Shown here one piece after another: positions 1-17,235 of a stretch of 19,010 nt of DNA. The first letter of the stretch is position 1. Every line of letters starts with the position of its first letter. The stretch is taken from positions 1 through 19,010 of the forward strand of contig JBBRUX010000061.1 in assembly GCA_038247415.1 (NCBI GenBank), read 5' to 3'. Made by a program: the position numbers and the translations under genes. Source of the DNA: Chitinivibrionales bacterium. GTDB taxonomy: Bacteria; Fibrobacterota; Chitinivibrionia; Chitinivibrionales; WJKA01. The notes below the pieces were generated by a model that was not told the DNA's origin, searched no databases, and saw only the letters and a list, made by a program, of their open reading frames with translations.

Positions 1-146
1 AACGTTTGACAAATGCAAGAAGTTGCCGCATTGGCGACATGACGGCTGCGAGCGAAGCGAAGACGCCGACGGAGCCATCAAAGCGGCAATTTGCCGAAGG
101 CCGAGGGCGGCTTTGAGCCCGATGCTTGCTTTGTTTGTTGTTTGTC
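1..146 (+). mobile_element. Integron attC-like recombination site (R'' box truncated at window edge)
   Basis: AAC(1-3), 5-nt spacer, ACAAA-T-GCAAG(9-19) ... CTTGC-TTTGT(125-134), 5-nt spacer, GTT(140-142). L boxes pair with one bulged base (T14). Internal stems 20-29/83-92, 40-47/73-80, GCC-GAA-GGC 93-101 and 105-108/117-120. Confidence 0.7.
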
Positions 147-548
147 TGTTTGGGCACCCCTTGTCTTTGCGACGCGCTTTCTTTATTTTTAATTCTGGCG
201 GTGGCTTCTTTTTTGATTTATCCTTTGTCTATTCAGCTGCCCGTCCTAATTCTTTTCTGGCTTTCGCAGTGCCCCCCCTCTTAATGTTTTTGCGCCGGAG
301 CGGAGGATGAGCGGAGGCGCTGTATTTTTTGAATATATGAAAAATAAGAAATGCAGAAACGCAAAAGTTCATTTGCTGATTAAAGGTTCAAAAGGGGGCT
401 GGCGGTTGCTATGTCCCCCCTCTTCCGTATTTTATGGGGATAACCCATTTCTATTGATTAAAATCTCGGAAAAACCTATTTTACAATTTATAAGAATAAT
501 AAACAAACCTAATCGTATCTTTGCTTTTTAGTTTTCTTTTTGTGTGAA

Positions 549-826
549 ATGATGCAAAGCATGCCAACCTCACTCATTTGCTCCAGCAAAATCACCGGGC
601 TATTTATGGCCTTGTATATGTTGGTTCTCTTTGGGGTGGTTGCGCCAGCACATCACCACGAAGACGGAGCCGAGCATAGTGATTGTGTTGTCTGTGTTGT
701 TGCGCACCATCCGTTTCAGTGGCTTTGTCTGTCACCGTCGTTTTGATTGAGTTATTTATCTCTTCGTCTTTCATTCCATTCTCGACACCTCGCTCTTTCG
801 ATTCTCGCGCTCCTCCTGTGATGTAA
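549..826 (+). CDS. DUF2946/CruR-like metal-sensing leader peptide (TM - HHH..CxxC - RAPP), split by an apparent 1-nt frameshift near 716
   Basis: Frame 0 gives a hydrophobic segment then HHHEDGAEHSDCVVCVVAHHPF (stop 744-746). The -1 frame, open 683-823, gives SVALSVTVVLIELFISSSFIPFSTPRSFDSRAPPVM* (TAA 824-826). Start may be ATG 549, 552 or 561. Confidence 0.75.
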
Positions 827-853
827 CCTTCTATCTCATGTCCTTATCGTTAA

Positions 854-880
854 GCCGCTCCTCTTAATATAGGAGGCGGT
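854..880 (+). promoter_or_regulatory. Intergenic stem-loop between leader ORF and porin gene
   Basis: GCCGCTCCT-cttaatat-AGGA(G)GCGGT; no U-tract after it, so not a classic intrinsic terminator. Confidence 0.45.
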
Positions 881-904
881 CACTGTTCAATTACATCAAG
901 GAGA

Positions 905-1978
905 ATGATTATGCATTCTAATCGACTGCATTTATATGCCTTTGTTATAGTGTTGTGTCAAGTTGTCTATTGGCCGGTCAACGCTGGTGTTGTCAATCCC
1001 GATATATCAGCAATCGGCCAAGTGTATGGGACCTACACAAATGATTCACTTACTGAAACGCACGATAAATTTGCACTCTCACTCGGTGAGACCGAGATAA
1101 ATCTGGATGCCGCCCTAAATCCTTATTTCAAAGGTGCATTCGTGCTGGCGATTGAAGGTGATGGTGGTATCGAAGTAGAAGAGGCATATGCATCCATGGT
1201 GCGTGGCCTACCTCTTAATCTTGCATTGAAAGCGGGAAAGTATCGGCTGAATTTCGGCAAGCTCAACCAGGTTCATCCTCATGCGTATCCATTTCTGCGG
1301 ACACCACGGGTATTGGCTCCGGATGTGGCAAAACTGCTTCCAGGTGAGGAAAGTTTTAATGATATTGCCGTTGAAGCTTCAACACTCATTCCCGTTTTCG
1401 GAAGTTGGGCAATCACTCCATCGGCAGATTTTCTTGAAGGCCGTTCATACCATCCCGAAGAATCCGCAATCGCCCACGCATGGCTTGCCCATGTGTCAAA
1501 TACATTCAGCATAGATCCAGCTGCGTTTGACATTGGTGGCTCGTTCACTCAGGGCATTAACAATGTAGCTGCCAATACCAAAACCACGGTTCTTGGGTTT
1601 GATGCAAAAGCGAAGATGATCGGTTCGCCTGTCTACGCAATGACTTTTGGCAGTGAATACCTCTATAAGTTTGCCGAAATTGCAGAAATCGCAGGAGGGA
1701 TAAGCCATGCTGACCGTTATGGCTTTTATGCATATATCAACAACCAATTATTTACGCGCTACAATGTCGGGATACTTTATGAACAGTACCAGAATCCTGA
1801 TGACAATTCGGTAATTGATAGGTCGATCAAGCCGTTCGTAGGATTCGCAGTTCTGGAGGAAAGCACACTTCTGCGTGCGTCATATGAATATTTCCTTGCA
1901 GGCAATGCTCAGAAAACAAGCACTATTGAAGTTCAGTTGCTCTTCAGCATGGGACCACACAAAGCTCATCAATTCTAA
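905..1978 (+). CDS. Outer-membrane beta-barrel (porin-like) protein of the type found with Zn/Mn ABC transporters
   Basis: Signal peptide; NPDIS, E-x-E-x-x-L-x-A-x-L-N-P-Y-F, EEAY, GKLNQVHPH motifs; His-rich C-terminus ending in Phe (GPHKAHQF); SD AAGGAG 898-903. Confidence 0.75.
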   Translation: MIMHSNRLHLYAFVIVLCQVVYWPVNAGVVNPDISAIGQVYGTYTNDSLTETHDKFALSLGETEINLDAALNPYFKGAFVLAIEGDGGIEVEEAYASMVRGLPLNLALKAGKYRLNFGKLNQVHPHAYPFLRTPRVLAPDVAKLLPGEESFNDIAVEASTLIPVFGSWAITPSADFLEGRSYHPEESAIAHAWLAHVSNTFSIDPAAFDIGGSFTQGINNVAANTKTTVLGFDAKAKMIGSPVYAMTFGSEYLYKFAEIAEIAGGISHADRYGFYAYINNQLFTRYNVGILYEQYQNPDDNSVIDRSIKPFVGFAVLEESTLLRASYEYFLAGNAQKTSTIEVQLLFSMGPHKAHQF

Positions 1979-2004
1979 CCACGATTACAAAAGGATATTA
2001 AATC

Positions 2005-2904
2005 ATGAAATCAATATTCAGAAGCAGCCTAACTGCTGCAATAGTGTTTCTGCTCACCGGTTCCACAATGTCCAACGCTGCGGTGCGTATCGTTGCGGCA
2101 TTGCCGGATCTCGGTTCCATAGCATCATACATCGGGGCCGATAACGTCGAGGTCACATCAATCGCAAAGGCAAACTCTAACCCGCACACGGTTGAAGTGT
2201 TTCCCTCGTACATGGCCAAAGTATCTCAGGCTGCAATTTATTTGAAGTCCGGATTGGGACTCGATCAATGGTCGGACGCTATTATCGATGGATCACGCAA
2301 TAATAAGATTCGAATTATAGACTGTTCAAACGGTGTCGCGGTTCTTGAAAAACCAGTAAAAGTCGACGCATCAATGGGTGATGTGCATCCTTTCGGCAAT
2401 CCGCATTACTGGCTTGATCCACGCAATGGTATTATCATTGGTCAAAACATTCTAGAAGCCTTGAAATCAGTTGACGCTGTGAATGCCTCTTTGTACGAAA
2501 GTAATTACGCCAAATTTAAAACAGAATGCGAAAGCAAGTTTTCTGCATGGCAAACGGAGATGACGCCGCTTGAGGGAAGAAAAATCATATCGTATCACTC
2601 ATCGTGGGCCTATTTCGCCAATGCATTTCAGCTCTCAATAATTGAACATATAGAACCATTTCCAGGCATTCCTCCAACAGGCAATCATCTTGCGCGACTT
2701 GTCAATTTAATCAAAAAGGAAAATGTAGCTTTTATTCTTCAGGAGCCATATTTCCCTGATGACGCACCAAAATTCTTAAATCGTCAGACCAGCATTAAGG
2801 CTTTCAAATATGCCCCTTCATGTTCAGATGCAAATGCACCGTCATACCTGAATCATTTTGATGAGATAATCAGTTCATTATCAACAGTTGCAGGAGATAA
2901 ATAG
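2005..2904 (+). CDS. Metal ABC transporter substrate-binding protein (ZnuA/TroA/MntC family)
   Basis: Signal peptide; NPH, GDVHPFGNPHYWLDP, YHSSWAYF and EPFPGIPPT motifs. Confidence 0.93.
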   Translation: MKSIFRSSLTAAIVFLLTGSTMSNAAVRIVAALPDLGSIASYIGADNVEVTSIAKANSNPHTVEVFPSYMAKVSQAAIYLKSGLGLDQWSDAIIDGSRNNKIRIIDCSNGVAVLEKPVKVDASMGDVHPFGNPHYWLDPRNGIIIGQNILEALKSVDAVNASLYESNYAKFKTECESKFSAWQTEMTPLEGRKIISYHSSWAYFANAFQLSIIEHIEPFPGIPPTGNHLARLVNLIKKENVAFILQEPYFPDDAPKFLNRQTSIKAFKYAPSCSDANAPSYLNHFDEIISSLSTVAGDK

Positions 2905-2905
2905 T

Positions 2906-3736
2906 ATGATGCTTTTTCACTATTCCTTCATGCTTCCCGCTTTAGTGGTCTGCCTGATCCTGGCGGGAATTCATACCTATTTCGGCTATCATATTGTTCA
3001 GCGGGGGGTCATCTTTGTTGACCTCTCGCTATCTCAGATAGCCGCGCTTGGTGCATGCGTCGCGCTTCTCCTGGGATGGGGAGAGGATGCGCCAATAAAA
3101 GCTTTTACCATGAGTTTAGCATTTACCTTTGGCGGTGCGGTTCTTTTTGCCTTTTTACGCAGGAGCCAGAAGATCGTTCCAATGGAGGCGCTCATTGGTA
3201 TTGCCTATGCCGGTGCTGTCGCAGTATCATTACTATTGCTGGAAAAATCCGCCACCGGAACCGAGCATATCAAGGAGATGCTCGTCGGAACGATACTTAC
3301 CGTTTCGTGGCACGATGTGCTGCAACTCGGGGCGATTGTGCTGGTAGTCGCGATCGTGCATTTGATAGTCCACAAGCGCCTGTTTTTGATATCGGAGAAT
3401 CCGGTTGGCGCAGCAAAAAACAACATTAAACTATGGATATGGGACATCATTTTTTACGCGACCTTTGGGATCGTTGTCACTTCGTCGGTTAAAGTCGCGG
3501 GTGTTCTGCTGATATTTTCTCTTTTGACAATTCCAGCAGTCACGGCAATGATCTGCATTGCGAGAACTCTTCGGCGGGTAGTATTCGGCTGGGTATTTGG
3601 GTTAGTTGGATGTATTGCAGGGCTTGAGGTTTCTTTGCGGTTTGACTCGGCTGCGGGACCATCAATAATAACGACCATGCTGGCAATAATGCTGATAGGA
3701 ATTGGGATCAGTGTTGTAACACGAAAGATGAGGTAA
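2906..3736 (+). CDS. Metal ABC transporter permease (ZnuB/MntB, ABC-3 family)
   Basis: Polytopic membrane protein with RGVIFVDLSLSQIAALG, EALIG and GVLLIFSLLTIPA; ATG 2906 has SD AGGAG 2892-2896. Confidence 0.92.
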   Translation: MMLFHYSFMLPALVVCLILAGIHTYFGYHIVQRGVIFVDLSLSQIAALGACVALLLGWGEDAPIKAFTMSLAFTFGGAVLFAFLRRSQKIVPMEALIGIAYAGAVAVSLLLLEKSATGTEHIKEMLVGTILTVSWHDVLQLGAIVLVVAIVHLIVHKRLFLISENPVGAAKNNIKLWIWDIIFYATFGIVVTSSVKVAGVLLIFSLLTIPAVTAMICIARTLRRVVFGWVFGLVGCIAGLEVSLRFDSAAGPSIITTMLAIMLIGIGISVVTRKMR

Positions 3737-3771
3737 TCGTGAAATCTGATACCCGGTGACTATGCACAACG

Positions 3772-4044
3772 CTATTGGCTGGAAGTATTTTTGCGTGCCT
3801 GTTCGATGATGTCAAGAAGAGAAAATATCTTAGGTTTGGGAGGTTGGCTTATCGCGGCCTGAGCATCTTTGCTGTAATTATCAGCAATAAAGGCGTGGAT
3901 GTCGATTTTCTCAAACCAGCAGTCGAATATTTTGCAGCAAGGGATTTCCTGACCGGGCTGCCGACAATATGAGAAAGGTACTTCATTGCCTAGCCTTGGA
4001 CATCGTTGTGATAGATTATCATGTTGTGTAATCAAGCAGAACAT
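3772..4044 (-). CDS. Small Cys-rich hypothetical protein (RCPRLG..F.YC..PC..I.DCW)
   Basis: Last gene of the minus-strand operon; spaced Cys motif; start is ATG 4044 or TTG 4035 rather than the overlapping 4131. Confidence 0.7.
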   Translation of the reverse strand: MFCLITQHDNLSQRCPRLGNEVPFSYCRQPGQEIPCCKIFDCWFEKIDIHAFIADNYSKDAQAAISQPPKPKIFSLLDIIEQARKNTSSQ

Positions 4045-4079
4045 TCCCCTATGGATTGGACGATGAAAATATAATAGTT

Positions 4080-4916
4080 CTAAACGTGAAAGCATACACC
4101 GGAACCACCAGGAATAATTTTTTGTCCGCATCGCATATTTAGATGCTCAACTGCATTTTCACCGGTGCAATGACAAGGCACGATTTGTTCAATTCCATTT
4201 AAGTGCAGATAATCGGAGGTTTTTTCCATCCGTTCCGGTGATGCATGGAGAAGATGAAACCCACCCACAATAGCATAAATTGGGGTATTATCGGTCAACG
4301 CCTTCGTGCAATTGATTGTATTGACAAGTCCAGAGTGACAACAGCCAGTTACAAGCACTATTCCCTTAAGAGTTTTAAACCACATCGCGAGGTCGTCATC
4401 GATAGGATCTTGTTTCGTTGCCTCCGGATCGAGAAAAAATGCGCCACCGGTGTCCTCAAAATTTGACAATCTTGGAATCGGACCCGTAATACCGATGTCT
4501 GCTGAAATAAGTGTTGGTCCTGATGTCCAATGGATACTATCAACAACTTGGTAAAGTGCAACCGAAGCCAGCTTGGTAATGCCAATCGGTTTCATTTTTC
4601 CGTCGGGTTGTTGGCTATAACGCGACATAAAAATACCAGGATGACAATAAATGGAAATCCCCGGATTCAAATCAAGAACAGCAGCAACGCCCCCGGTATG
4701 ATCGTAGTGCCCGTGCGAAAGCACAAGAGTGTCGGCAGTGCGCAGATCTATGCCCAAGACTTCGGCATTGCGGATGAGCATGTCGCTCTGGCCGGTGTCG
4801 AATAAGATGCGCCGATCATCGGCTTCAATCCAGAGGGTGAGACCGTGTTCGGCAAGTACTTCGGGGTTGCCCGGTTTATTGTCAACAAGGATGGTAATTG
4901 TTAGTTTACGTATCAT
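4080..4916 (-). CDS. MBL-fold metallo-hydrolase (COG1237 type)
   Basis: AEHGL, ILFDTG, SHGHYDHTGG, TGCCHSG, GGFHL and PCHCTG motifs; ATG 4916 overlaps the upstream gene end. Confidence 0.92.
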   Translation of the reverse strand: MIRKLTITILVDNKPGNPEVLAEHGLTLWIEADDRRILFDTGQSDMLIRNAEVLGIDLRTADTLVLSHGHYDHTGGVAAVLDLNPGISIYCHPGIFMSRYSQQPDGKMKPIGITKLASVALYQVVDSIHWTSGPTLISADIGITGPIPRLSNFEDTGGAFFLDPEATKQDPIDDDLAMWFKTLKGIVLVTGCCHSGLVNTINCTKALTDNTPIYAIVGGFHLLHASPERMEKTSDYLHLNGIEQIVPCHCTGENAVEHLNMRCGQKIIPGGSGVCFHV

Positions 4917-5811
4917 ACTGCCAAATTGCCTTAGTAACCGCATTCCATATGCTTTGTATGTCAACCGCAACACCCTCAGAGCAGAATTCCGTGACGGTTT
5001 CCAGTTTCCGCTGCGCCTGCGTAACAGCCTTATCGTACCTGACCAGTCCGGCAAAGCCAATGCCCTGCGATTGCGCGAAGTCTTTAATCATTTCGGTTGC
5101 GGCAATGTTAATATCCCACTTATTGACACATACCATTGCAGGAACCCGGAGCTGTTTTGTAAGGCTCACTATTCGACGAAGGTCATGGTCACCAGACACG
5201 GTCGGTTCGGTGACAATAAGCGCCAGATTCGCAGCAGTCAATGACGCGATAACGGGGCACCCGATGCCCGGAGAACCATCGATAAGCACATAGTCCGCTT
5301 CCTGCTCCTGTGCTAGCCTCTTTGCTTCGCTTCGGACGAGCGTCACAAGTTTGCCGGAATTTTCTGCTGCAATACCAAGTTTGGCGTGAACCATAGTTCC
5401 AAAACGGGTAGTGGACACATACCATTCTCCACAGATTTCTTCTGGGAAATCTATTGTTCTGGCGGGGCATAAACTTACGCACACTCCGCAACCTTCACAG
5501 GCAATCGGATCAATTGAATACGTTACGCCGGGATATGCAACCCAGGTGGTTCCATCACGCACCGCACCGAATCGGCATACCTCAGCGCACTTACCACAAC
5601 CAATGCAGTTTTCCGGACGAATTGCCGCCTTATGACCACTACGAAACTCGGATCGCAAACCGATTTCCGGTTTCAGAATAAGATGAAGGTCTGCTGCATC
5701 GACATCGCAGTCTGCCATCACCGCATTCCCATTGGCAAGTGCGGCGAACGAAGCTGCAATACTCGTTTTACCCGTGCCACCTTTACCGCTGATAATCACG
5801 ATTTCTTTCAT
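4906..5811 (-). CDS. MinD-superfamily P-loop ATPase with inserted 2x[4Fe-4S] domain (COG1149)
   Basis: SGKGGTGKT, DCDVDAADLHL, two CxxCxxCxxxC motifs, SGKLV, DGSPGIGCPV, VTEPT; ATGA overlap with the upstream paralog. Confidence 0.93.
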   Translation of the reverse strand: MKEIVIISGKGGTGKTSIAASFAALANGNAVMADCDVDAADLHLILKPEIGLRSEFRSGHKAAIRPENCIGCGKCAEVCRFGAVRDGTTWVAYPGVTYSIDPIACEGCGVCVSLCPARTIDFPEEICGEWYVSTTRFGTMVHAKLGIAAENSGKLVTLVRSEAKRLAQEQEADYVLIDGSPGIGCPVIASLTAANLALIVTEPTVSGDHDLRRIVSLTKQLRVPAMVCVNKWDINIAATEMIKDFAQSQGIGFAGLVRYDKAVTQAQRKLETVTEFCSEGVAVDIQSIWNAVTKAIWQYDT

Positions 5812-6656
5812 GCCTGTACCTGCTTTCGAATCGATCGCCACAGTTCTGCAAAACGTTCACGGATTCCGGGAACGGCAGTAAGGATCATTTCCCCGCGAGA
5901 ATAGCTTTCCGCTATGCGGCGATCATCGGGGATCTGTGCGATAATCTTGACCTGCCTTTTCTCGCAAAAAACTTCTGCATCAGTATTACCTGTTTCGGCC
6001 CGGTTGACAACGATACCATGTGGGATGCGAAGCTCTTGTATCATGTCAAGCGCAAGGCCCAGATCGTTAAGTCCGAATGGTGTGGGTTCGGTAACAAGCA
6101 CAACGAAATCGGCATTACGTATTGATGCAATAACAGGACAGGATGTGCCCGGAGGAGCATCGATGATATTGATTGCTTCTTTTGTCGCCTGCTCTAATAC
6201 TTTCCGAATGAGTGGAGGACTCATTGCTTCGCCAATGTTCAAGCGGCCATGTACAAAACCAATGCTGCCGGATATACCGGATTCCACAAAGCCAATTTCT
6301 TTTGTCTGTTCCGAAATGGCGAAGGATGGACAAAGCAGCGTACACCCTCCACACCCGTGGCATAATTCCGGGAAAACCATCACCTTTTTTCCCAGCCGAA
6401 TTAGTGCTTTATACTCACAAAAACGTACACACGCTCCACAGGCATTGCATGTTTTCTCATCAATGACCGGTATGGGTATAACCGCAGCGTGGCTTTGCAG
6501 AATTTCAGGCTTAAGGAAAAGATGGCCATTCGGCTCTTCCACGTCACAGTCAAGGTATCTGACTTTTTCTCCCATTTCACCAAGAAATAATGAAAGGTTT
6601 GTCGAGACGGTTGTCTTACCGGTGCCGCCTTTCCCGCTTGCGATTGCAATGTTCAT
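5808..6656 (-). CDS. MinD-superfamily P-loop ATPase with inserted 2x[4Fe-4S] domain (COG1149), partner paralog
   Basis: SGKGGTGKTT, DCDVEEPNGHLF, CNACGACVRFC, CHGCGGCTLLCP, DAPPGTSCPV, VTEPTPFGLNDL. Confidence 0.93.
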   Translation of the reverse strand: MNIAIASGKGGTGKTTVSTNLSLFLGEMGEKVRYLDCDVEEPNGHLFLKPEILQSHAAVIPIPVIDEKTCNACGACVRFCEYKALIRLGKKVMVFPELCHGCGGCTLLCPSFAISEQTKEIGFVESGISGSIGFVHGRLNIGEAMSPPLIRKVLEQATKEAINIIDAPPGTSCPVIASIRNADFVVLVTEPTPFGLNDLGLALDMIQELRIPHGIVVNRAETGNTDAEVFCEKRQVKIIAQIPDDRRIAESYSRGEMILTAVPGIRERFAELWRSIRKQVQA

Positions 6657-7006
6657 GATGTGCGCCTATTTTCCGATTTTTCAAACAGAATTTTCGGGGT
6701 TTGAGCCCCATTGTTGAACTTTTGTTCCAAAACTGAATACTGCGCATCACGCAGAATCTGGGGTTTCTTGCTTTTTTGATCCGATAGCAATGCGCGAACA
6801 AGTTGGCGTAACAAGCCAGATGGATTTGCAAGGTCCCGGACAGCAGCAATCATTACAGACGCAGCCAGCCCCAAAAACCATCCGCGTTTGCCGCCAAACA
6901 TTACCCGCCTTAACCCGTTGCTACCAAGGCCGTTTTTGCATCGGCCTCTGCCGCGCCCTGCACTCGCACCGAACCCTAATGGGCCGGTACCGTCACCTTG
7001 TGGCAT
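6653..7006 (-). CDS. DUF5320-like protein (MPQGDGTGP start, Gly/Arg-rich, one hydrophobic segment)
   Basis: N-terminal motif shared with 7273..7611; GAGG SD before ATG 7006; ATGA overlap with the downstream gene. Confidence 0.7.
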   Translation of the reverse strand: MPQGDGTGPLGFGASAGRGRGRCKNGLGSNGLRRVMFGGKRGWFLGLAASVMIAAVRDLANPSGLLRQLVRALLSDQKSKKPQILRDAQYSVLEQKFNNGAQTPKILFEKSENRRTS

Positions 7007-7042
7007 GGAGTACCTCACTCGCAGATGAAATGTATTTCATCC

Positions 7043-7276
7043 TCAAACCCACCTTATTGCATGAGCCGGGCACACTTTCATGCATCCGCCAATGCCCAGG
7101 CATAAATTCGCATTTACGATAGCCCTATTGTTTGCATCCAATGTAATCGCGCCAGTCGAACATCAGGATAAACAAAAACCACAACCTGTGCACTTCTCCC
7201 TATTGATCGAAACCGGTACAAGCCCTTCGCCTCGAACGACCGTCTGCTTGATCCCCACAGCTCCCGCAATACTCAC
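7043..7276 (-). pseudogene. Small ferredoxin-like (4Fe-4S dicluster) ORF with an in-frame TGA at codon 38
   Basis: Hand translation: MSIAGAVGIKQTVVRGEGLVPVSINREKCTGCGFCLS*CSTGAITLDANNRAIVNANLCLGIGGCMKVCPAHAIRWV*. GTG start overlaps the upstream stop (GTGA); TGA at 7165-7163. Confidence 0.8.
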
Positions 7277-7611
7277 TTTTTCTCCATTTCGAGATCATTG
7301 ATACGGCTGTTAATGCTCTCAAGGGCTTCACCATAAGACTTTGCCTGATTCTTGAGAACGGTGATCTCGTCGTGCGAAGTAAAAGGGATTGGAGGTGCCA
7401 TAGTAGTATCCGCGTGTGATGCCCACCCGTGTCTCCATCCCATGCCCATACCGCAGCCACGTCTTCCACCGCGACCGTGCCCCATGCCCATCCCTCGTCC
7501 ACCGGGAAACTGGTTCATTTTCCCGAACATGCTATTTCCAGCACACCGGCCTGCTGCTCGTCCTGTCATAGGCCCTATTCCCATTGGCCCTGTTCCATCA
7601 CCTCGTGGCAT
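7273..7611 (-). CDS. DUF5320 family protein
   Basis: MPRGDGTGPMGIGPMTGRAAGRC start, Gly/Arg-rich middle, C-terminal coiled coil; SD GGAGG. Confidence 0.88.
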   Translation of the reverse strand: MPRGDGTGPMGIGPMTGRAAGRCAGNSMFGKMNQFPGGRGMGMGHGRGGRRGCGMGMGWRHGWASHADTTMAPPIPFTSHDEITVLKNQAKSYGEALESINSRINDLEMEKK

Positions 7612-7662
7612 AATCTACCTCCATTGAAAAGTTTTAAATGTGGGCACCCTTTACAAATGCGC

Positions 7663-8142
7663 CTATTTGACTTTAAAGAATCGTCCTGTCGCCTGAACAA
7701 CAAGGTTTCGGTTTTGAACGATCTCACATTTCATCGAATACAAGAGGCCACAATTAACCGCTGTAATCGACGTTGTGAGTGTTGTCTTTGTCTGTATCAT
7801 AACCGGCTTGCGGTACTTGACCGACAGATTCGCCGTATATCCGACCACTCCGTGCCCCATCAAGCATTGGGCCATCGATGCATCAATAATCGCGGCGACA
7901 ACGCCTCCGTGAACCATTTCATCGTAGCCCTGCTGGAATTCATTACCGTTGAATTCGCCCTGCAAAGTGCCTGCATCATCAAACGCGAATTTCAGTCCCG
8001 GAACAATCGATGGTTGGCGATTAAACAAGCACTGCGAATGGTGTATTTCTCTGAGACGTTTGAGATTTCCTTCGTAATAAGCACTGTCGTGAGACTGTGT
8101 GTCTATGTCAATGTCCTGCGTATTGCTCTCGTCAACACTCAC
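7663..8142 (-). CDS. PaaI family thioesterase (hotdog fold)
   Basis: QGYDEMVHGGVVAAIIDASM and TANLSVKYRKPV motifs; start uncertain (GTG 8142 preferred to TTG 8184). Confidence 0.85.
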   Translation of the reverse strand: MSVDESNTQDIDIDTQSHDSAYYEGNLKRLREIHHSQCLFNRQPSIVPGLKFAFDDAGTLQGEFNGNEFQQGYDEMVHGGVVAAIIDASMAQCLMGHGVVGYTANLSVKYRKPVMIQTKTTLTTSITAVNCGLLYSMKCEIVQNRNLVVQATGRFFKVK

Positions 8143-8171
8143 ACTATCCCCGCTTAACGCTTGCTCAAGTG

Positions 8172-8510
8172 TCAATGGTCGCAACTGTTTCCTCCGGTAA
8201 TAAGAGTGCCCTTAAGCCAATCAAGAATCACGGTCTGCGGATGCTCTGGTGGCGCACCTACCACCACCTGGATGTTGTTCTGAGCAAAGAGCTGTTGCGC
8301 TCGCATACCCATACCGCCAGCTATAATAACGTTAGCGCCTTTTTCGTGCAGCCATTTTGGCAACAGCCCCGGCTCATGAGGCGGTGGAACTACCTCTTCT
8401 TTAGCGGTGATTGATTTTGTTTGTTCGTCAACGGTTGCGATGACGAATTTTTCACAATGACCGAAATGCATGCAGAGTTTACCATCTGCGGTTGGAACGG
8501 CAATTTTCAT
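8172..8510 (-). CDS. NifB/NifX (MTH1175-like) FeMo-cofactor-binding family protein, HFGHC/CDH type
   Basis: MKIAVP..HFGHCEKF, PHEPGLLPKWL, IAGGMG, C-terminal NSCDH. Confidence 0.9.
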   Translation of the reverse strand: MKIAVPTADGKLCMHFGHCEKFVIATVDEQTKSITAKEEVVPPPHEPGLLPKWLHEKGANVIIAGGMGMRAQQLFAQNNIQVVVGAPPEHPQTVILDWLKGTLITGGNSCDH

Positions 8511-8563
8511 ATGACCCCCATGGTTTGATTGTTGTTGATGTGTTCGATTCGAACAGGTCCAGT

Positions 8564-8923
8564 TTACCAATGTCCTTCGACATCAGACGACTCAAGTTTT
8601 GCAAGCTTTCCATTCTTGAATAAATCGACAGCATCCTGCACGGTTACGTTTGACGCGGTGCAAACAGCGACTCCCGCCTTATTGAGAGCTGTAAACGCCT
8701 TGGGGCCGCAATGTCCGCTAATAAGAACCTCACAACCGGCATTGACCACATTGGCGGCAGATTGAATACCTGCGCCTTGTGCAGCGTTCAGGTTCTGGTT
8801 ATTGTCGATAGATTCCCAGCTCATAGTTACATCGTCGTAAATCATGAAATATTTTGCTCTGCCAAACCGCGGGTCTATCGCGCTATCCGATTTTGGTTGT
8901 TCTGATGATATTGCAATTTTCAT
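8564..8923 (-). CDS. NifB/NifX family protein, orange protein (ORP)-like
   Basis: MKIAIS, DPRFGRAKYF, QGAGIQSA, GHCGPKAF; SD AGGAGA. Confidence 0.9.
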   Translation of the reverse strand: MKIAISSEQPKSDSAIDPRFGRAKYFMIYDDVTMSWESIDNNQNLNAAQGAGIQSAANVVNAGCEVLISGHCGPKAFTALNKAGVAVCTASNVTVQDAVDLFKNGKLAKLESSDVEGHW

Positions 8924-8973
8924 AGCAGTTTCTCCTTTGTTATATAGTTCAATTTTAGTGTGCGCTTGCAGAT

Positions 8974-9360
8974 CTATCGCATTCCACATTGCCCTCCATG
9001 ATGTCGGTTCCGTATATTTTTCCTGCACATCATTCGACCACAGCCGGGCATTGAAAATGCCTCGATCACGTTGATGTTGTTCTGATATGCAACAATCACT
9101 TCGTCAACGCTTCCGCGAATCCACGAAAGTACCTTGATGCTCTTATCCTGCAAAATTGCGCTACCGACATTCGATATTGCGCCGCATATAAGAACTGTCA
9201 CGCCATCGTTCAAACACGCCTCGGCCTTGTCAAACAGTGACATGTTCCGAACATCCACGGCTTTACGCCTACCATCGGGCCTTATTATCAAAAGACAACA
9301 CGATGCGTCGTAAAGTGGCGAAACGATATCGTTCCAGTTTGTTATTGCAATTGTTTCCAT
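8974..9360 (-). CDS. Divergent NifB/NifX family protein
   Basis: IAI..VSPLYD, GVTVLICGAIS, MPGC plus basic tail; ATG 9360 lies just downstream of a sigma54 promoter. Confidence 0.8.
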   Translation of the reverse strand: METIAITNWNDIVSPLYDASCCLLIIRPDGRRKAVDVRNMSLFDKAEACLNDGVTVLICGAISNVGSAILQDKSIKVLSWIRGSVDEVIVAYQNNINVIEAFSMPGCGRMMCRKNIRNRHHGGQCGMR

Positions 9361-9374
9361 TACAGAGAGCCTAT

Positions 9375-9390
9375 AGCTATTTCCGTGCCT
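9375..9390 (-). promoter_or_regulatory. Sigma54 (-24/-12) promoter for the minus-strand operon
   Basis: Minus strand reads AGGCACGGAAATAGCT, i.e. GG-N10-GC, close to TGGCACG-N4-TTGCW. Confidence 0.7.
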
Positions 9391-9453
9391 GATCGCTAAA
9401 AGGCCCTTTTGAGAAGGGAATTGGGGTTTCTTACTGTTTCCGACTTTTTGCGG

Positions 9454-9493
9454 TCTTTGCATGAATGCAATGTCTGCAAAGATTCATTGCAAA
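9454..9493. promoter_or_regulatory. Palindromic candidate enhancer (bEBP UAS) between the divergent sigma54 promoters
   Basis: TTGCAT-GA-ATGCAA (9457-9470); TCTTTGCA-N13-TGCAAAGA (9454-9482); four TGCA cores within about 35 bp. Confidence 0.5.
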
Positions 9494-9609: not shown

Positions 9610-10407
9610 ATGAGTCACCAAGGCGCAGATGAAAAGCGATTAACAGAAACACTCTCAAGTATCAAGCGCAAATACGTAGTTCTTTCCGGCAAAGGCGGGG
9701 TGGGCAAAAGCACTGTCGCAGTCAACCTTGCCGTTGGACTAGCGCTCAAAGGAAAAAAGACCGGGCTTCTCGACACCGACCTGCACGGACCATCGGTTCC
9801 CAAGATGCTCGGCCTTGAAAACTTTGTGAGTAGCGGAGACGAAACACATCTGGAACCAGCAGTTCGATATGATGGGCTGCTCAAGATCATGTCGGTTCAA
9901 TTTCTGCTTAAGAATCTTCACGACTCGGTAATCTGGCGCGGCCCGCTCAAGCATGCCGTAATCTCTCAGTTTATAGGCCACACAATTTGGGGAGAGATTG
10001 ACTATCTCATAATTGATTCGCCACCGGGAACAGGTGATGAACCTCTCTCGGTTGTCCAAACTGCAAAGCCCGATGCGGCAATCATAGTAACAACCCCGCA
10101 GGATGTGGCGACCTTTGACGTGCGCAAGTCAATCGACTTCTGTAACAAATTGAACCTCCCGGTCATGGGAGTTATTGAAAACATGAGCGGATTTATCTGT
10201 CCTCATTGCAACAAAGAGACAGCGATTTTCAGCACGGGTGGCGGAAAACGGATGGCAGAGGAACTGGGTATCTCCTTTCTGGGAGCGATTCCGATTGATC
10301 CTCAATTCGTTTCTCGTAGTGATCAGGGGAACGCCATGATCGATTTTACTAGTGCAGGCAAAAGTCTTGATGCGATCAAAATGATCATTGAAAAAATTGC
10401 ACAATAA
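9610..10407 (+). CDS. mrp: Mrp/NBP35/ApbC family Fe-S cluster carrier ATPase
   Basis: SGKGGVGKST, DLHGPSVP, WRGP, DSPPGTGD, ENMSGFICPHC; SD AAGGAG. Confidence 0.95.
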   Translation: MSHQGADEKRLTETLSSIKRKYVVLSGKGGVGKSTVAVNLAVGLALKGKKTGLLDTDLHGPSVPKMLGLENFVSSGDETHLEPAVRYDGLLKIMSVQFLLKNLHDSVIWRGPLKHAVISQFIGHTIWGEIDYLIIDSPPGTGDEPLSVVQTAKPDAAIIVTTPQDVATFDVRKSIDFCNKLNLPVMGVIENMSGFICPHCNKETAIFSTGGGKRMAEELGISFLGAIPIDPQFVSRSDQGNAMIDFTSAGKSLDAIKMIIEKIAQ

Positions 10408-12575: not shown

Positions 12576-13298
12576 TCAATGCGGGTTCTTTCCCATTGAC
12601 TTCACTGATGTATCTCCCATCAGAAACGCTTCCGCTTCCCTGCAATCCCGACATTCGCAAAGCCCCTGTTCGCAAAGAACCAGAAACCGGGCACACGTCC
12701 GTGATGCGAATTCGACATCATGCGTGGCAATTAAAATTGAGGATGGAATAGAACGCAGGACATTCGCAAGCGCATTTTTCCCCCGAGGATCCAGCGCCGA
12801 CGATGGTTCATCGAGTAGAATCACTGCAGGACTGGTAACAAGCGCACCGGCCAGTGCAATTCGCTGACGTTGACCATGAGACAGTTGGAATGGGGAGCAT
12901 TCTGCCAGGCCTTTTGCCCCTAACATATCGAGTGTGGCAATGGATTTTTCGTGCGCTTCTTGCAGAGGTACACCTTTTCGAATAAGACCATAAGCTACAT
13001 CGTCAAGAACACGGGGAAAGAGAATTTGATCTTCGGGAATATTGAACAGAAATCCAGTGCGGTCACGCGCTTTCTGCAAGGTCTTTTTTTCAACAGGAAT
13101 TTCATCAATAAAAATGTTGCCGGTAAACGGCACTAATCCGACTGCCGCAAGCAGCAAGGTCGTTTTTCCCGATCCGTTAAGACCGAATAGCGCGACTCTT
13201 TCGTCGGGATGAACATGGAATGACACGTCGCTGACCGTGTCGACCACGCTTCCGGCATACCGGATAGTCACGGATTTGAATTGAAGTACAGGGTTCAT
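12576..13298 (-). CDS. ECF transporter ATPase (CbiO/NikO/EcfA)
   Basis: Walker A GLNGSGKT, LSHGQRQR signature, LLDEPSSALD, ATHD. Confidence 0.92.
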   Translation of the reverse strand: MNPVLQFKSVTIRYAGSVVDTVSDVSFHVHPDERVALFGLNGSGKTTLLLAAVGLVPFTGNIFIDEIPVEKKTLQKARDRTGFLFNIPEDQILFPRVLDDVAYGLIRKGVPLQEAHEKSIATLDMLGAKGLAECSPFQLSHGQRQRIALAGALVTSPAVILLDEPSSALDPRGKNALANVLRSIPSSILIATHDVEFASRTCARFLVLCEQGLCECRDCREAEAFLMGDTSVKSMGKNPH

Positions 13299-14044
13299 AA
13301 AAATGCTTTCACTCGCAATGTAACTGAAATCACGAAGGCTAAAGTTGCAGCAGACAGCATCGTCATATCTTGAAATGTCAATTTGATACGATCATCCTTA
13401 ACTGCAGTCTCGATTCCATATCCTCGAACCGCCATTGCCGCAGCGCTTCGCTCTGCACGAAACAGCATCCGAACCATCCAGACGATTGGGAATGCAAAAA
13501 GCACACTGCTACCGCGAACCCCCGATGCACCCCGCAATCGTAGTACACCAACAATTCGTGTCGTTTCTTCCGCTAAGAGCATTGTTTGATTAATAAGCTG
13601 AACGATCAGCGCGACAATTGATCGGGGAATCGGCAGACAAACAAGCCCGCGATGAAGATCATGCATGGTAAGGGATGCTATCGTTGACGCAGCAATAAAG
13701 AACATACAGGTGCTGCGCAAGGCGATACCACTTGACAAAGCAAAACGCTCTGCCATCGGTGATGAGGAATACTCATCGACCGTCATCCAGGGGCTGAGAA
13801 GAAGAAACGGACAAAACAAAACGATCGATGCAATCGCGCCGCGTAGGAGCATTTTTTCCGGCATTGACGCAAGCAGTATCCAGCAAAAGGCAGTACTGAT
13901 CATGAAGATCATTTGTCCCATCGATTGCAGAGGCATCAGCAAACAAGAACTGCCCACAAGTACACCCGCTAAAATGCGAGTTTGCGGGTGCACCGATTTT
14001 AAAGGCCCGTTTCCGCATCCCCAGAAGGCAAAGATATCTTTCAT
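13295..14044 (-). CDS. ECF transporter T component (CbiQ/NikQ/EcfT)
   Basis: HPQTRI start, TM helices, coupling motifs LRG and AMAVRGY. Confidence 0.85.
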   Translation of the reverse strand: MKDIFAFWGCGNGPLKSVHPQTRILAGVLVGSSCLLMPLQSMGQMIFMISTAFCWILLASMPEKMLLRGAIASIVLFCPFLLLSPWMTVDEYSSSPMAERFALSSGIALRSTCMFFIAASTIASLTMHDLHRGLVCLPIPRSIVALIVQLINQTMLLAEETTRIVGVLRLRGASGVRGSSVLFAFPIVWMVRMLFRAERSAAAMAVRGYGIETAVKDDRIKLTFQDMTMLSAATLAFVISVTLRVKAFL

Positions 14045-14046
14045 GA

Positions 14047-14661
14047 TCAACCCTTACGCACAGTTACTAAATATCCACCATCATCATCACGCATTTCTTC
14101 TATGACGTATCCCATTTGCTCAAGCAGCGATGCAGTCTGATCTGCGGGGGCCAGAAGATGATCGTTCACCGCTGCCGATGCTTCGGAATGAATCTTGTTT
14201 ACGGCATTGCGGGAAATCGTGTGCCATATATGAAGCTTGCCTCCCGGCTTGAGCCATTTCAGGAATAAGGTCCCAACCAGCTTAGCATCTGTCAAATGAG
14301 GCCAGACAGAATAACAGATAATCCGGTCAAATGTTTTAGGGGGAGATTCCATATCTTCCACGACACCACACAACCAAGTAACTCGTGCATCGTTTGCTTT
14401 TAATCGTGCCCTATCGAGCATGACATTCGACAGATCGATTGCGGTCACTTTTCCTTTGGGTGACAAGTGGCGAATGAGCGCCGCAGTGAGATTGCCAGTG
14501 CCGCAACCTACATCAAGAATGTGTTCATCGCCTTGAACACCGAATTTCTCCAGTGCTGAATCGAGCTGAATACCGAGTCCTTTCAGGTCGTGAAAAGAAT
14601 CCCATTTAAGAGCCAATGAGTCAAAAAAAGTATTGGATGTTGATTGACAACTTTCACACAT
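14047..14661 (-). CDS. Class I SAM-dependent methyltransferase embedded in the ECF operon
   Basis: FFDSLALKWD, ILDVGCGTG, FDRIICYSVWPH, LKPGG; ATG 14661 with SD AGGAG. Confidence 0.9.
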   Translation of the reverse strand: MCESCQSTSNTFFDSLALKWDSFHDLKGLGIQLDSALEKFGVQGDEHILDVGCGTGNLTAALIRHLSPKGKVTAIDLSNVMLDRARLKANDARVTWLCGVVEDMESPPKTFDRIICYSVWPHLTDAKLVGTLFLKWLKPGGKLHIWHTISRNAVNKIHSEASAAVNDHLLAPADQTASLLEQMGYVIEEMRDDDGGYLVTVRKG

Positions 14662-15187
14662 TTTTATACTCCTGAATTGAATTTTTAATTCCTGCCACAC
14701 CAGAAAGCTTCACAATTGCGGGAATAGCCACGATCATTAGAATGATACCAGGCCAACCGCTAAGTAGTGATGCAGCGGCAACGAATTTGGCAGGTAGTTT
14801 CATAAAAAGCGCCATCAGATACACAAGCCCAACGCCGATGGCCCGGCCAAGTAGCAGAACTGGAATAAGAATGAGCAGTTCATTTGCTTTTGGAAAGATT
14901 CTTCGCAACAGACCAATCATTGCACACATTATCGACAACTCAATGCTCATGATGAACGCAACTGGCGGATAAAATGGCGGCATACCGGTTATTGCACCAG
15001 AGATAAGGGGCAGCAGCAGTGCAGTGAGTGCCGAAGGGATCGGGCCGACAAAAAAAGCGAGTGTCACAATCGGCAGATACATCGGCATGAATATAGAGCC
15101 GAGATGAAAAACATGAAAGATAACCGGCAGCAGCATTGCCGCAGCGCCGAAAACTGCACAGTACGCGATATCACGAGGTTTGAGCAT
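14654..15187 (-). CDS. ECF transporter S component (not NikM/CbiM type)
   Basis: 177-aa, about 6 TM protein with LPVIFH, FMPMYLP, GMPP and PGIIL motifs; sits with T and A genes. Confidence 0.82.
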   Translation of the reverse strand: MLKPRDIAYCAVFGAAAMLLPVIFHVFHLGSIFMPMYLPIVTLAFFVGPIPSALTALLLPLISGAITGMPPFYPPVAFIMSIELSIMCAMIGLLRRIFPKANELLILIPVLLLGRAIGVGLVYLMALFMKLPAKFVAAASLLSGWPGIILMIVAIPAIVKLSGVAGIKNSIQEYKNV

Positions 15188-15189
15188 GG

Positions 15190-17235
15190 TTACACCTTTA
15201 TGGTTATTCCTGCGAGAAAATTTATGCCGGGCATCGGGTAGTATTGGATATACTGATATTGTGAATTCATTAAATTCCGAACAACACAATATGGTTCAAG
15301 TTGCACTCCGCCTTTTCCGTGTGTACGATATCTTATAGACCCATCAATAAAAAAAACATTCTCAAGTGGATCACGTTTGTAGTTATTCATATATAATCCA
15401 TGAACCCATTCACCGGTTGCCGATAATTCCAATTTACCTGTTTTGCTTTCGCATGTGTAGCTGATCCGACCATTGACCTTGGCATCGGGGTTCTGTTTTG
15501 TAAATTTACCGACATCCTGCCAACTTGCAGTAATAAACGCTCCGAATGGCCCGATATGCTCCATCGAAAACTCACCTTCAATGCCTTGGATTTCAAGTTG
15601 GTCAATGTTCACAACTTCGGCACTTGGCCAGACGCCGAAATACTTGATCATATCGGTTGCCCAGGTTTTGTATACTGAGCCACTCAACCGGGCAGTTCCT
15701 GATTTTACCTCTGCGCCAGCATCCCAATTGATAGCGATTTCCGGGCGAAGGTTCGGATTTGCAACGGGAAATGGTAGATAGAGTTCACGAAGGGTGGGTT
15801 GCCTGAAATTCTTTGTCAACCGAGTATGCAGGGAAAAATATTCTATGGGATCCCAATTCAGACCTGCTTTGTACAGGGGAATGGTTCCATATCTGTTGCT
15901 GAAATGAAGTCGCCCCCCACAAACGCCGGTGAATGCCATGCCTGGCTTTATGGTGATTTGCCCATATAAACCAGCGTTTGAAAGGTCTTCAACAGGTGAT
16001 TCGATACCAGTAATTCTGTTAAGTACAAGTCCGTCAACATATTCGCCTGCTGTACCCAGAATGATTTGCAGTTTCTGCTCGATAAAACTGCCTGAACACT
16101 CCGCAGTCGCTCCCGTGGTGTAATCACGCGAAAAGAAGCCGTCATATAGCCGATGCTCGCCGATATTGAGCCATGGCACAACGGTTAAATGCAGGTGACT
16201 GCCTGGATAGTCAAGCCTCGCGCTAAAGCTGTTCCGAAGCACGTCAAACCGATGATCGGTGTAGGGGTGAAAATATGGCCCAGGATCTCCACCTTCGAGG
16301 TGAATAATCTTATCACGAAGCGCAATGGTACTTTGTCCAGGCAGATGCAGACGCAACCCTATTTGTCCGGCTACACTGCTTCCATCGGTACCATCACGAT
16401 GGCCATCGGTTGCAAACGCGGAGAAAGCGGAAACGACTTCTGTATTTTTGCCCTTGGAAAGTAATGTGGCGCGTTCACGAAAGGTGTTAAACGATCCGTA
16501 CGCGGCATCGTTCTCAAGTCGAATTCCAGCCGAATCAGGCCAACGGTTTTCGACAATAATAACTCCGCCCATAGCATTGGTGCCATACAACACCCCATCG
16601 CCGCCTTTGACCACAATCATTCGGTCAATTAACGATGGGAAAAAAGCATCGGGAATCGGATGTCCGAAAATGCCTTGATAATCGGGAGCGCCATCTTCCA
16701 CAACAAGTATTTGCGAATTGGGACTGCCGCCTAATCCACGGATGTAAATGCCGCCCGATGCGCCCGAAGATACGCCATGCAACCCGGTGCCTTTGCTTGT
16801 CACATAGATATCGCCCGATTCCTGGGAGATCTCCTCAAGCGGTGTCGCTCTTGAAGACTCGCGAATTTGCCAACCTCGTACAATTGTTGGTTTGACGGAT
16901 TCATCCTTGCCTGTATACCGTTTCCCAAAAACCGTAAACGTGTAGAGTTCGGGAATATCTGCAGTATCATTCGCAGAAAGCGCGATTGAATCGTGAATCG
17001 GTTTATTTGTATCGATGACTGGTGCTGATTTTGCTTGGAGTAAAAGGGTGGAATCTTTTACCCATACGGTATCATCAATCCAGATTGTATCGACTCGTTC
17101 GATAGTGTTTGGAGGCACGCTATCGAGGCTGGGCATTGTCATGGATGTGGTACCAGCTTGGACACCGGACATCAACAATAAAAACCATACAACCATAATC
17201 AGAAATGGTTTTGCCAGGTGCTTTTCAATGCCCAT
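15190..17235 (-). CDS. TonB-dependent receptor
   Basis: Signal peptide; plug motifs IRGLGG, DG.P, VVKGGDGVLYGTNAMGGVI; barrel motifs FRQPTLRELY, NPNLRPE, RNL, PGINF. Confidence 0.95.
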   Translation of the reverse strand: MGIEKHLAKPFLIMVVWFLLLMSGVQAGTTSMTMPSLDSVPPNTIERVDTIWIDDTVWVKDSTLLLQAKSAPVIDTNKPIHDSIALSANDTADIPELYTFTVFGKRYTGKDESVKPTIVRGWQIRESSRATPLEEISQESGDIYVTSKGTGLHGVSSGASGGIYIRGLGGSPNSQILVVEDGAPDYQGIFGHPIPDAFFPSLIDRMIVVKGGDGVLYGTNAMGGVIIVENRWPDSAGIRLENDAAYGSFNTFRERATLLSKGKNTEVVSAFSAFATDGHRDGTDGSSVAGQIGLRLHLPGQSTIALRDKIIHLEGGDPGPYFHPYTDHRFDVLRNSFSARLDYPGSHLHLTVVPWLNIGEHRLYDGFFSRDYTTGATAECSGSFIEQKLQIILGTAGEYVDGLVLNRITGIESPVEDLSNAGLYGQITIKPGMAFTGVCGGRLHFSNRYGTIPLYKAGLNWDPIEYFSLHTRLTKNFRQPTLRELYLPFPVANPNLRPEIAINWDAGAEVKSGTARLSGSVYKTWATDMIKYFGVWPSAEVVNIDQLEIQGIEGEFSMEHIGPFGAFITASWQDVGKFTKQNPDAKVNGRISYTCESKTGKLELSATGEWVHGLYMNNYKRDPLENVFFIDGSIRYRTHGKGGVQLEPYCVVRNLMNSQYQYIQYYPMPGINFLAGITIKV

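Follow-up and report, generated by a model that had tools for sequence, protein, structure and literature searches.

Introduction

DUF2946 proteins are defined by a CXXC motif together with a RAPP motif, and one of them, CruR (Bp2923) of Bordetella pertussis, is the upstream open reading frame (ORF) of bfrG (PMC9426467). In the published account of CruR, the two motifs lie 45 residues apart, a distance kept within 1–2 residues in more than 2,000 proteins, and RAPP stands three residues from the end (PMC9426467). RAPP mutants are reported to abolish expression of the downstream TonB-dependent transporter and CxxC mutants to abolish the copper response; five residues added to the spacer impair that response, and the read-out is Rho-dependent termination, with a rut region in cruR (PMC9426467). 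Here we describe a putative leader of this kind at positions 549–826 (forward strand) of a 19,010-nucleotide (nt) stretch of DNA from a Chitinivibrionales bacterium (Fibrobacterota; GenBank assembly GCA_038247415.1, contig JBBRUX010000061.1). We call the whole stretch the window. An initial annotation, made from the letters of the window, had proposed a hidden arrest-peptide leader at this place with CruR as its model; its description of CruR is correct by the account just cited.

CutF of Rhodobacter capsulatus is a second described system. Copper is reported to induce a stall, which melts a stem-loop hiding the ribosome-binding site of the next gene (PMC9973294, bioRxiv 10.1101/2025.02.05.636593). 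A survey of CutF-like proteins gives 29 clusters with Cys, His or mixed motifs, and places the His-only clusters beside HupE/UreJ (PMC9973294). In these reports, neither the CruR nor the CutF protein was detected in vivo (PMC9426467, PMC9973294). More generally, RAPP and RGPP are described as stalling ribosomes (PMC10951233, PMC12992588). A survey of the two motifs calls them the most avoided tetrapeptides in proteomes and finds them enriched near the C-terminus of small proteins upstream of genes for TonB receptors, YcnI, PCu(A)C, PepSY and DsbA (PMC12992588).

We conclude that 549–826 is probably one copy of a leader that regulates in cis and belongs to the CruR/CutF (DUF2946-like) kind, for which we propose a stall mechanism. 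The anatomy of the leader, its conservation, its link to the operon behind it and a deletion that has broken the window copy are established from the sequences compared below.

Leader anatomy and conservation

On sequence, an intact leader of this family is a peptide of about 90–100 residues made up of a predicted membrane anchor, a putative metal site, a spacer of fixed length and a RAPP motif 2–7 codons before the stop. The putative metal site has the pattern H-x-H-x-D-x3-H-x2-C-x2-C and stands directly behind the anchor.

In the window, these parts are divided between two reading frames of the forward strand. The 5' part is in frame 0 (549–746), as seen from its translation and from alignment with intact homologs; it starts at ATG 549 (alternative starts are TTG 540 and ATG 552) and ends at a premature TGA at 744–746. 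In its translation, a short polar N-terminus precedes a hydrophobic, signal-anchor-like segment at about 591–650. Directly behind this segment is the putative metal sensor HHHEDGAEHSDCVVC (651–695), recognized from the translation and the family alignment. The −1 frame is open from 683 to 826 and carries the 3' part of the leader (710–826), which aligns with homologs and consists of the spacer region, RAPP, Val-Met and a TAA at 824–826. Its C-terminal end reads Ser-Arg-Ala-Pro-Pro-Val-Met-stop, and the four codons of the arrest motif, CGC GCT CCT CCT, occupy 806–817, two codons before the TAA. This placement comes from the sequence, with the stall geometry taken from PMC10951233 and PMC12992588. 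Joining the two frames gives about 92 residues with a spacer of about 37. The two-frame peptide of the initial annotation, with a membrane segment, the sensor and RAPP two codons before the stop, is confirmed in the sequence.

R[AGS]PP at most 15 residues from the stop occurs in only 16 open frames of at least 50 residues when all six frames of the 3.84-Mb genome are read. Among those 16, the leader build was found only in a paralog on another contig, C7. We do not attribute the build to chance because it is this rare genome-wide and because it recurs upstream of porin homologs.

That recurrence was followed in three sets of sequences. Among genomes of relatives, 12 of the 13 loci with a porin match have a leader ORF upstream; the one without (L012) has a weak porin match. 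A porin-alignment scan of GTDB species genomes gave 49 loci, in Fibrobacterota (Chitinivibrionales, Chitinispirillaceae, Fibrobacteria), Elusimicrobiota, Krumholzibacteriia, Latescibacteria, Eisenbacteria, Ignavibacteriae and one metagenome-assembled genome labelled Spirochaetota. Leaders were counted in the 45 loci with at least 400 nt upstream, and all but one (L047) have an ORF ending in R[AG]PP plus 2–13 residues. The third set comes from metagenome contigs, where 57 loci have at least 500 nt upstream of the porin match. An intact leader is present in 52 of these, with spacers of 42–45 residues and the endings RAPP (31), RGPP (17) and RSPP (4); four more have an RGPP-ending ORF without the H...CxxC sensor, and in one (L134) the leader is split in two frames. 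The initial annotation had suggested looking for intact HxH-CxxC-RAPP leaders upstream of porin homologs, and leaders of this type are indeed there, in 44/45 genome loci and 52/57 metagenome loci.

A profile built from 11 leaders, searched against 1.84 billion proteins, matched 884 representatives at E ≤ 1e-3 and 80 at E ≤ 1e-10. We took motif, spacer and hydropathy counts from the best 150 of the 884. Both CxxC and R[AGS]PP are present in 142 of them (RAPP 109, RSPP 20, RGPP 13), and the tail after the RAPP-type motif is mostly 1–7 residues. An N-terminal hydrophobic segment precedes the sensor in 136/142, and 88/142 have a second one between CxxC and R, depending on the clade; a segment here is a Kyte-Doolittle mean of at least 1.6 over 17 residues, which is a simple hydropathy test and not a topology predictor. 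A word-based homolog search with the intact paralog leader gave a single match, which says little about the size of the family. Database records name its members 'hypothetical protein'.

The conserved positions are few. In paralog numbering, the columns invariant among the 11 leaders are H28, H30, D32, H36, C39, C42, R86, P88 and P89. Across the 150 aligned representatives, C39 and C42 are invariant (150/150), as are H28 and H30; at least 90% keep D32 and H36. One genome leader (L062, 1/44) has Cys-x-Cys in place of CxxC. The alignment of the stretch from CxxC to R is variable in sequence and constant in length, and because only the length is kept it looks like a spacer. In the genome loci with CxxC (n = 43) this stretch is 43 residues in 30, 44 in 2, 45 in 8 and 46 in 3. 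In the protein library it is 41–46 residues in 141/142 representatives and exactly 43, the mode, in 80.

Some leaders depart further from this plan. L010 and L011, from relatives, are divergent leaders before distant porin homologs and have longer sensors rich in Cys and His. L137, L139, L141 and L142, from metagenomes, are RGPP-ending ORFs before distant porin homologs and lack H...CxxC. Together these six suggest further sensor types on the same scaffold.

Upstream of the window leader, the contig itself begins, and 1–540 is G+C-rich over 1–120 and T-rich after that, with no convincing ORF. For the window copy, no upstream regulator gene is visible in 1–540, nor an Rfam match. Over the wider range of 1–4200, an Rfam search found no riboswitch or other known RNA at E ≤ 1.

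Downstream operon

The first gene behind the leader encodes a porin-like outer-membrane beta-barrel of 355 residues without a plug (911–1978, forward strand), identified from its translation and a structure model. We place its start at ATG 911 since ATG 905 is too close to the strong Shine-Dalgarno (SD) sequence AAGGAG at 898–903; the leader TAA and ATG 911 are 84 nt apart. The next gene (2005–2904, forward) encodes a substrate-binding protein of the ZnuA family (cluster A-I; PF01297, 161.7 bits) with three invariant His. The last gene of the cassette (2888–3736, forward) encodes an ABC-3 permease like ZnuB and AztB (PF00950, 118.6 bits), where ABC stands for ATP-binding cassette.

The porin is recognizable by fold. 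Its AlphaFold2 model (mean predicted local distance difference test score 89.4, predicted template modelling score 0.81) is an all-beta barrel behind a signal helix, with no plug; the last six residues are modelled with low confidence. Foldseek places chitoporin (5mdo_A), OmpT (6ehe) and Omp32 (2fgq) at the top (E about 1e-11, TM-score 0.58–0.68), and the fold is most like chitoporin, OmpT, Omp32, PorB and OprP (TM-score about 0.55–0.68). By sequence, the porin has no Pfam match, its profile has none among Protein Data Bank sequences at E ≤ 1, and in NCBIfam there is a weak match to LbtU-porin (22 bits against a cut-off of 90). Two of its His motifs are invariant in 45/45 aligned sequences: H-P-H at residues 122–124, in a loop region, and G-P-H-K-x-H at the C-terminal end (348–353). 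They are possible metal-binding or selectivity sites, judging from their conservation.

Leader, porin, ZnuA and ZnuB occur together as a cassette in 47/50 loci, and the remaining three are cut by contig ends. The arrangement described in the initial annotation, a plug-less porin followed by a ZnuA-type binding protein and an ABC-3 permease behind the leader, is borne out, and the linkage is kept across several phyla. After the cassette, the next raw ORF of at least 90 residues is on the opposite strand in 28/44 loci. An ABC ATPase is nearby in only 3/50 loci, and an ATPase gene is therefore not part of the cassette.

The genome (99 contigs, 96% complete) holds a second copy of the whole cassette on contig C7, with 78% identity in the porin, 81% in ZnuA and 80% in ZnuB. 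Its leader is one intact ORF of 91–94 codons with the same parts. The order on C7 (locus L066, 3812–11812) is a Fur-family gene, leader, porin, ZnuA, ZnuB, a second ZnuA, an ABC ATPase, an ABC-3 permease, an ArsP_1-type permease and a DUF1980 protein. The ATPase of this second Znu system is a candidate partner for the cassettes in this genome. The end of the Fur-family gene overlaps the start of the C7 leader, and it is the only Fur-family match in the genome. We considered a Fur-family gene as a general neighbour of the leader; it is present at only 3/50 loci and so is not part of the conserved cassette.

Comparison with described arrest peptides

The hallmarks of CruR and CutF are present in the leader family: a Cys/His motif, a C-terminal RAPP-like motif, fixed spacing, an N-terminal anchor and a position as first gene of a metal operon. 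The broken copy in the window falls outside the CruR-type spacing (about 37 residues), and the form in a sister sample, described below, is within it (43).

With CruR, the family shares the place at the head of a metal-uptake operon, an N-terminal export or anchor signal, the invariant CxxC, RAPP a few codons before the stop and a spacer of fixed length (45 in CruR, 43 here). Both leaders have a 3' part rich in C and poor in G. The logic of the operon also makes it likely that the polarity is the same, such that a stall keeps the uptake genes on and metal turns them off. The two differ in several ways. In the window family, the sensor has three invariant His and an Asp in addition, and the operon encodes a plug-less porin and a ZnuA/ZnuB ABC importer, whereas CruR precedes a TonB-dependent transporter and a PepSY_TM protein. 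CruR belongs to Proteobacteria and senses copper; the family described here is found in Fibrobacterota, Elusimicrobiota and allies and, from its sequence context, probably senses zinc. The window also has a short intergenic spacer (84 nt) and a possible SD-sequestering helix.

CutF resembles the device proposed here in that it senses metal as a nascent chain targeted to the membrane and has a proline-rich stalling motif at its C-terminus; there too, the proposal is that the stalled ribosome opens up an RNA structure masking the ribosome-binding site of the next gene. The CutF survey had already noted clusters with His-containing motifs and non-copper neighbours (HupE/UreJ). Unlike the window family, whose target is an importer, CutF controls a detoxifying multicopper oxidase, and copper induces its stall.

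ApdA, ApdP, ApcA, SecM and the small proteins of the RAPP/RGPP survey also carry R-A/G-P-P near the stop of a small protein that has a localization signal and lies upstream of a gene on the same strand. The RGPP and RSPP variants of the window family are described in that work as active or partly permissive (PMC10951233, PMC12992588). ApdA, ApdP, ApcA and SecM differ in serving as monitors of Sec/YidC activity. As metal-related classes the survey lists TonB-dependent receptors, YcnI, PCu(A)C and PepSY (PMC12992588); its main text does not mention zinc, porin, ABC transporter, substrate-binding or Fibrobacter. Likewise, ZnuA, ABC, zinc and porin are not mentioned in the main text of the CutF survey (PMC9973294), whose context tables may hold this clade. 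A literature search for an arrest peptide, upstream ORF or RAPP together with zinc and ZnuA found no such paper.

A profile search against DUF2946, the first check that the initial annotation had named, gave a mixed result. Eight of 12 intact homologs match PF11162 (14.1–22.0 bits, E 2.8e-4 to 0.08) and four do not. The matches run from profile position 33–53 to 117 of 117, the part that ends in RAPP. Of the best 150 representatives, PF11162 picks up 53 at E ≤ 0.01, the strongest at E 2.5e-6. In a protein atlas, the paralog leader adjoins Fibrobacterota clusters that are unnamed or labelled 'putative DUF2946'. The relationship is consistent, then, and every match from the 12 homologs is below the Pfam gathering threshold. 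Because the matches are consistent but sub-threshold, we regard the leader family, on sequence similarity, as a divergent branch of the CruR/CutF kind of arrest peptide that is peripheral to Pfam DUF2946.

Proposed mechanism

We infer from these comparisons that there is a stall, which metal it answers to, in which direction the response runs and by what route it is read out. A ribosome would arrest on RAPP near the end of the leader. The metal site would then be about 46–50 residues from the peptidyl-transferase centre and so would lie just out of the exit tunnel, at the membrane or translocon. As long as the site is empty, the stall would persist; the ribosome would cover the last leader codons, which would free the SD region of the porin, and would also shield a C-rich, G-poor stretch from Rho. 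With the stall on, the porin, the ZnuA-type binding protein and the permease would be made. Binding of metal, most likely Zn(II), to the nascent site would release the arrest by compaction or pulling, after which the ribosome would terminate and the operon would shut down. We favour this direction, in which the empty site means stall and expression and the metal-bound site means neither, because of the design logic of an importer and the precedent of CruR.

Two read-outs, sequestration of the SD sequence or Rho, have precedent in the described systems and have some support here. For the first, folding predicts a helix between the Pro-Pro-Val-Met-stop codons of the leader (5' arm, 812–826) and the ribosome-binding region of the porin (3' arm, 891–903, which includes the SD sequence), with a predicted hairpin between the arms (854–880), all on the forward strand. 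The helix has 13 bp and −16.6 kcal/mol, compared with −8.4 for shuffled sequences (z −3.9); against synonymous recoding its z is −1.9. The equivalent pairing in the paralog has z −2.15 against shuffles and −2.1 against synonymous recoding. Both the helix and the hairpin recur in L067, a metagenome relative with an 89% identical porin, where the hairpin has a shorter loop. As a family-wide rule, SD sequestration was rejected, the enrichment being weak, and we keep it as a model for the window's clade.

Codon choice is also relevant to the helix. The first Pro codon of the motif (812–814 in the window) is CCT in 28/46 genome loci and 27/52 metagenome loci (55/98 together), compared with 98/802 (12%) of the Pro codons across the porin ORFs; no CCT bias is seen at the second Pro of the motif. 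The bias at the first Pro creates a CCUCC anti-SD core, and a tRNA-related reason is also possible. For the second read-out, the window has a pyrimidine-rich stretch with C in excess of G (740–860, forward; GC skew −0.37 to −0.40), which may be a Rho-loading, rut-like region by analogy with the rut region of cruR.

A number of observations count against this reading as a whole. The loci are related to one another, so the counts above overstate independence. Neither piece of the window leader matches PF11162 at E ≤ 1, and all DUF2946 matches of the window's clade are below the gathering score (at most 22.0 bits against 23.7). In minimum-energy folds, the SD sequence pairs with the leader end in 47/75 cases compared with about 32/75 for shuffled leader ends, and the count drops to 28/75 when more flanking RNA is included. 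The family mean z of the helix is −0.79 against shuffles and −0.38 against synonymous recoding, where 14/87 loci are below −1.64 and 3/87 above +1.64. The deletion in the window copy is observed at contig level, from assemblies. CruR and CutF respond to metal in opposite directions, and sequence is no guide to which of the two the leader follows. The metal is deduced only from neighbouring genes and residue chemistry, and CxxC is a classic Cu(I) motif. Lastly, CruR and CutF, the characterized relatives, are reported to sense copper (PMC9426467, PMC9973294).

The direction or the read-out could be otherwise. Metal might induce or prolong the stall and thereby turn the operon on, as reported for CutF, where copper binding induces stalling and melts the stem-loop over the next ribosome-binding site; or the stall might act only through Rho anti-termination, with no SD helix. 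The second variant draws on the reported Rho-dependent read-out of CruR, on the C-rich, G-poor stretch at 740–860 and on the weak family-wide support for the helix, but the window and the paralog both show specific pairing of leader end and SD sequence. As for CutF polarity, it would be unusual for the substrate of an importer to switch that importer on, and the sole characterized leader before an uptake gene (CruR, before BfrG) is described as relieved by metal. We regard this pair of variants as the less likely account and keep metal-released arrest as our working model.

Probable metal ligand

Several features of the operon point to zinc. Among solved structures, the binding protein is best matched by the zinc-uptake binding proteins of Synechocystis (2ov1, 1pq4; E 4e-24). 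Its His61, His134 and His198 are invariant in 47/47 sequences and align with His residues of Synechocystis ZnuA, which we take to be zinc ligands. The best NCBIfam models are AztC for the binding protein and AztB for the permease, with scores for AztC, AztB and ZnuA far below the equivalog cut-offs. Judged by its residues, the His3-Asp-Cys2 site of the leader suits Zn(II).

The window also has a separate cluster of nickel type (12,576–18,788, minus strand) headed by NikR (18,384–18,788). This cluster further encodes two proteins of no known family, a TonB-dependent receptor with a plug (15,190–17,235), a membrane protein, a methyltransferase, CbiQ and an ABC ATPase; no RAPP leader was seen before it.

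From its His-rich sensor, the initial annotation had suggested Zn, Ni, Co or Mn as the ligand. Of these, zinc gains from the three-His site, while nickel, cobalt and manganese are less likely because of the separate NikR/TonB/CbiQ cluster in the window and the zinc-type character of that site. Over all candidates, zinc is the likeliest ligand of the sensor, at somewhat better than even chances by our judgement of the sequence evidence, because of the three-His binding protein, its relationship to Synechocystis ZnuA, the Fur-family gene and second Znu system beside the paralog, and the separate NikR cluster.

The same device might instead respond to copper or to another cue, such as nickel, cobalt, manganese or the thiol redox state of the periplasm. 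CxxC is invariant in the leader family, and CruR and CutF, the two characterized members, are described as responding to copper through Cys motifs. RAPP leaders have also been reported upstream of DsbA and thioredoxin genes (PMC12992588), and the His-only CutF-like clusters beside HupE/UreJ suggest nickel or cobalt. However, the cassette downstream is an importer of Znu/Azt type with an invariant three-His site, and the paralog lies between a Fur-family gene and a second complete Znu system. PCuAC, YcnI, CopC, a multicopper oxidase and a PepSY_TM protein were not seen in the window or the C7 locus, and nickel has the NikR cluster. A ligand other than zinc is therefore, in our view, the minority case, though one to be taken seriously.

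Frame break in the window copy

The window leader is a copy broken by a 19-nt deletion. We compared Logan contigs of four public runs over window positions 300–1300. The X1 contig, at depth 11 and from the probable source sample, agrees with the window base for base over the compared stretch and has the same deletion. X2, a contig of 5,867 nt at depth 14.1 from a sister sample in the same study, covers the compared stretch from end to end and has 19 extra bases behind position 707; besides these it differs from the window only by two substitutions, T455A and T710G. The comparison with X2 puts the deletion junction at 705–716 (forward strand), where the loss of 19 nt behind 707 throws everything downstream into the −1 frame. 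Since 19 equals six codons plus one base, with these bases in place frame 0 continues into the present −1 frame and reaches the same TAA. L067 too has the leader 3' part in a single frame, with additional residues where the window has its gap. A short imperfect direct repeat ending in CCGTTT flanks the gap, and a deletion between short direct repeats is the usual signature of slippage.

This changes two claims of the initial annotation. The 'hidden' joint of two frames is, by comparison with the sister-sample contig, a break made by the deletion. The 37-residue spacer is an artefact of the same deletion, since the sister-sample form has 43 residues; the mode of the family is 43 (range 41–46), and CruR has 45. 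A programmed −1 frameshift was considered and rejected, as the 19-nt difference explains the break and the overlap at 683–746 has no slippery heptamer (X_XXY_YYZ).

It is improbable that the break is an assembly artefact, or a programmed frameshift after all, and that the leader is functional in this organism. The observation comes from assemblies at the modest depth of 11×, and the deletion sits between short repeats. Against this, two assemblies of the same sample agree (the window and the X1 contig). Repeats of 6–9 nt are too short to be collapsed in de Bruijn assembly from k-mers. A read-through product would have the 37-residue spacer, outside the 41–46 of the family, from an overlap that lacks a slippery site. 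Another apparently broken copy also exists, in 1/57 metagenome loci; in this contig (L134), sensor and RAPP parts are in different frames upstream of a porin match at 869.

In the broken copy, ribosomes would stop at 746, never cover 812–826 and leave 747–905 untranslated, so both read-outs predict low expression. From its sequence, the window copy should be locked in a low-expression state.

The least probable account, which we give little credence, is that the small ORF encodes a stable membrane protein acting in trans, as a metallochaperone or a subunit of the porin or ABC system: it has one hydrophobic segment (two in 88/142 representatives) and a conserved metal site, and it always accompanies transporter genes, but its CxxC-RAPP stretch is conserved in length and not in sequence, RAPP/RGPP are strongly avoided tetrapeptides yet the motif is invariant here and always 1–13 residues from the stop, the spacing matches that of CruR, where it is reported to be functionally important (PMC9426467), and the CruR and CutF proteins were not detectable in vivo.

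Other genes in the window

Past the cassette, a gene with a metallo-beta-lactamase fold lies at 4080–5060. A run on the minus strand (4906–9462) encodes two MinD/ParA-type P-loop ATPases with 4Fe-4S domains, two DUF5320 proteins, a thioesterase, two NifX/NifB-like proteins (Nitro_FeMo-Co) and one unknown protein. Opposite this run, on the plus strand, is a gene for an Mrp/NUBPL-type ATPase (9610–10,407).

Implications

Metal-sensing arrest peptides have so far been studied only for copper homeostasis in Proteobacteria (CruR, CutF). The locus family described here, for which comparative support is unusually clean at the level of sequence, extends the principle to a new transport system, a dedicated porin with a ZnuA/ZnuB importer that has no ATPase gene of its own, and probably to zinc. 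It also extends it to poorly studied phyla, where more than 100 natural variants define the residues and spacing that matter. For annotation, it is a family of 'hypothetical protein' ORFs mostly missed by Pfam. The locus points to an unannotated outer-membrane route for zinc-type ABC importers. With about 95 codons and 85 nt, it is a compact test system for how metal binding by a nascent chain becomes release of arrest.

In its most specific form, which we put forward tentatively, the leader may be the first zinc-responsive nascent-peptide sensor: a ribosome-bound H3-D-C2 site that would read Zn(II) at the membrane, release the RAPP arrest and shut off the porin and ZnuAB importer. It would thus do a Zur-like job where no Fur gene is nearby. 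If so, the deletion in the window would amount to a natural knock-out of regulation in one member of a pair of paralogous operons, and despite the broken leader in the window, the intact paralogous operon on C7 remains.

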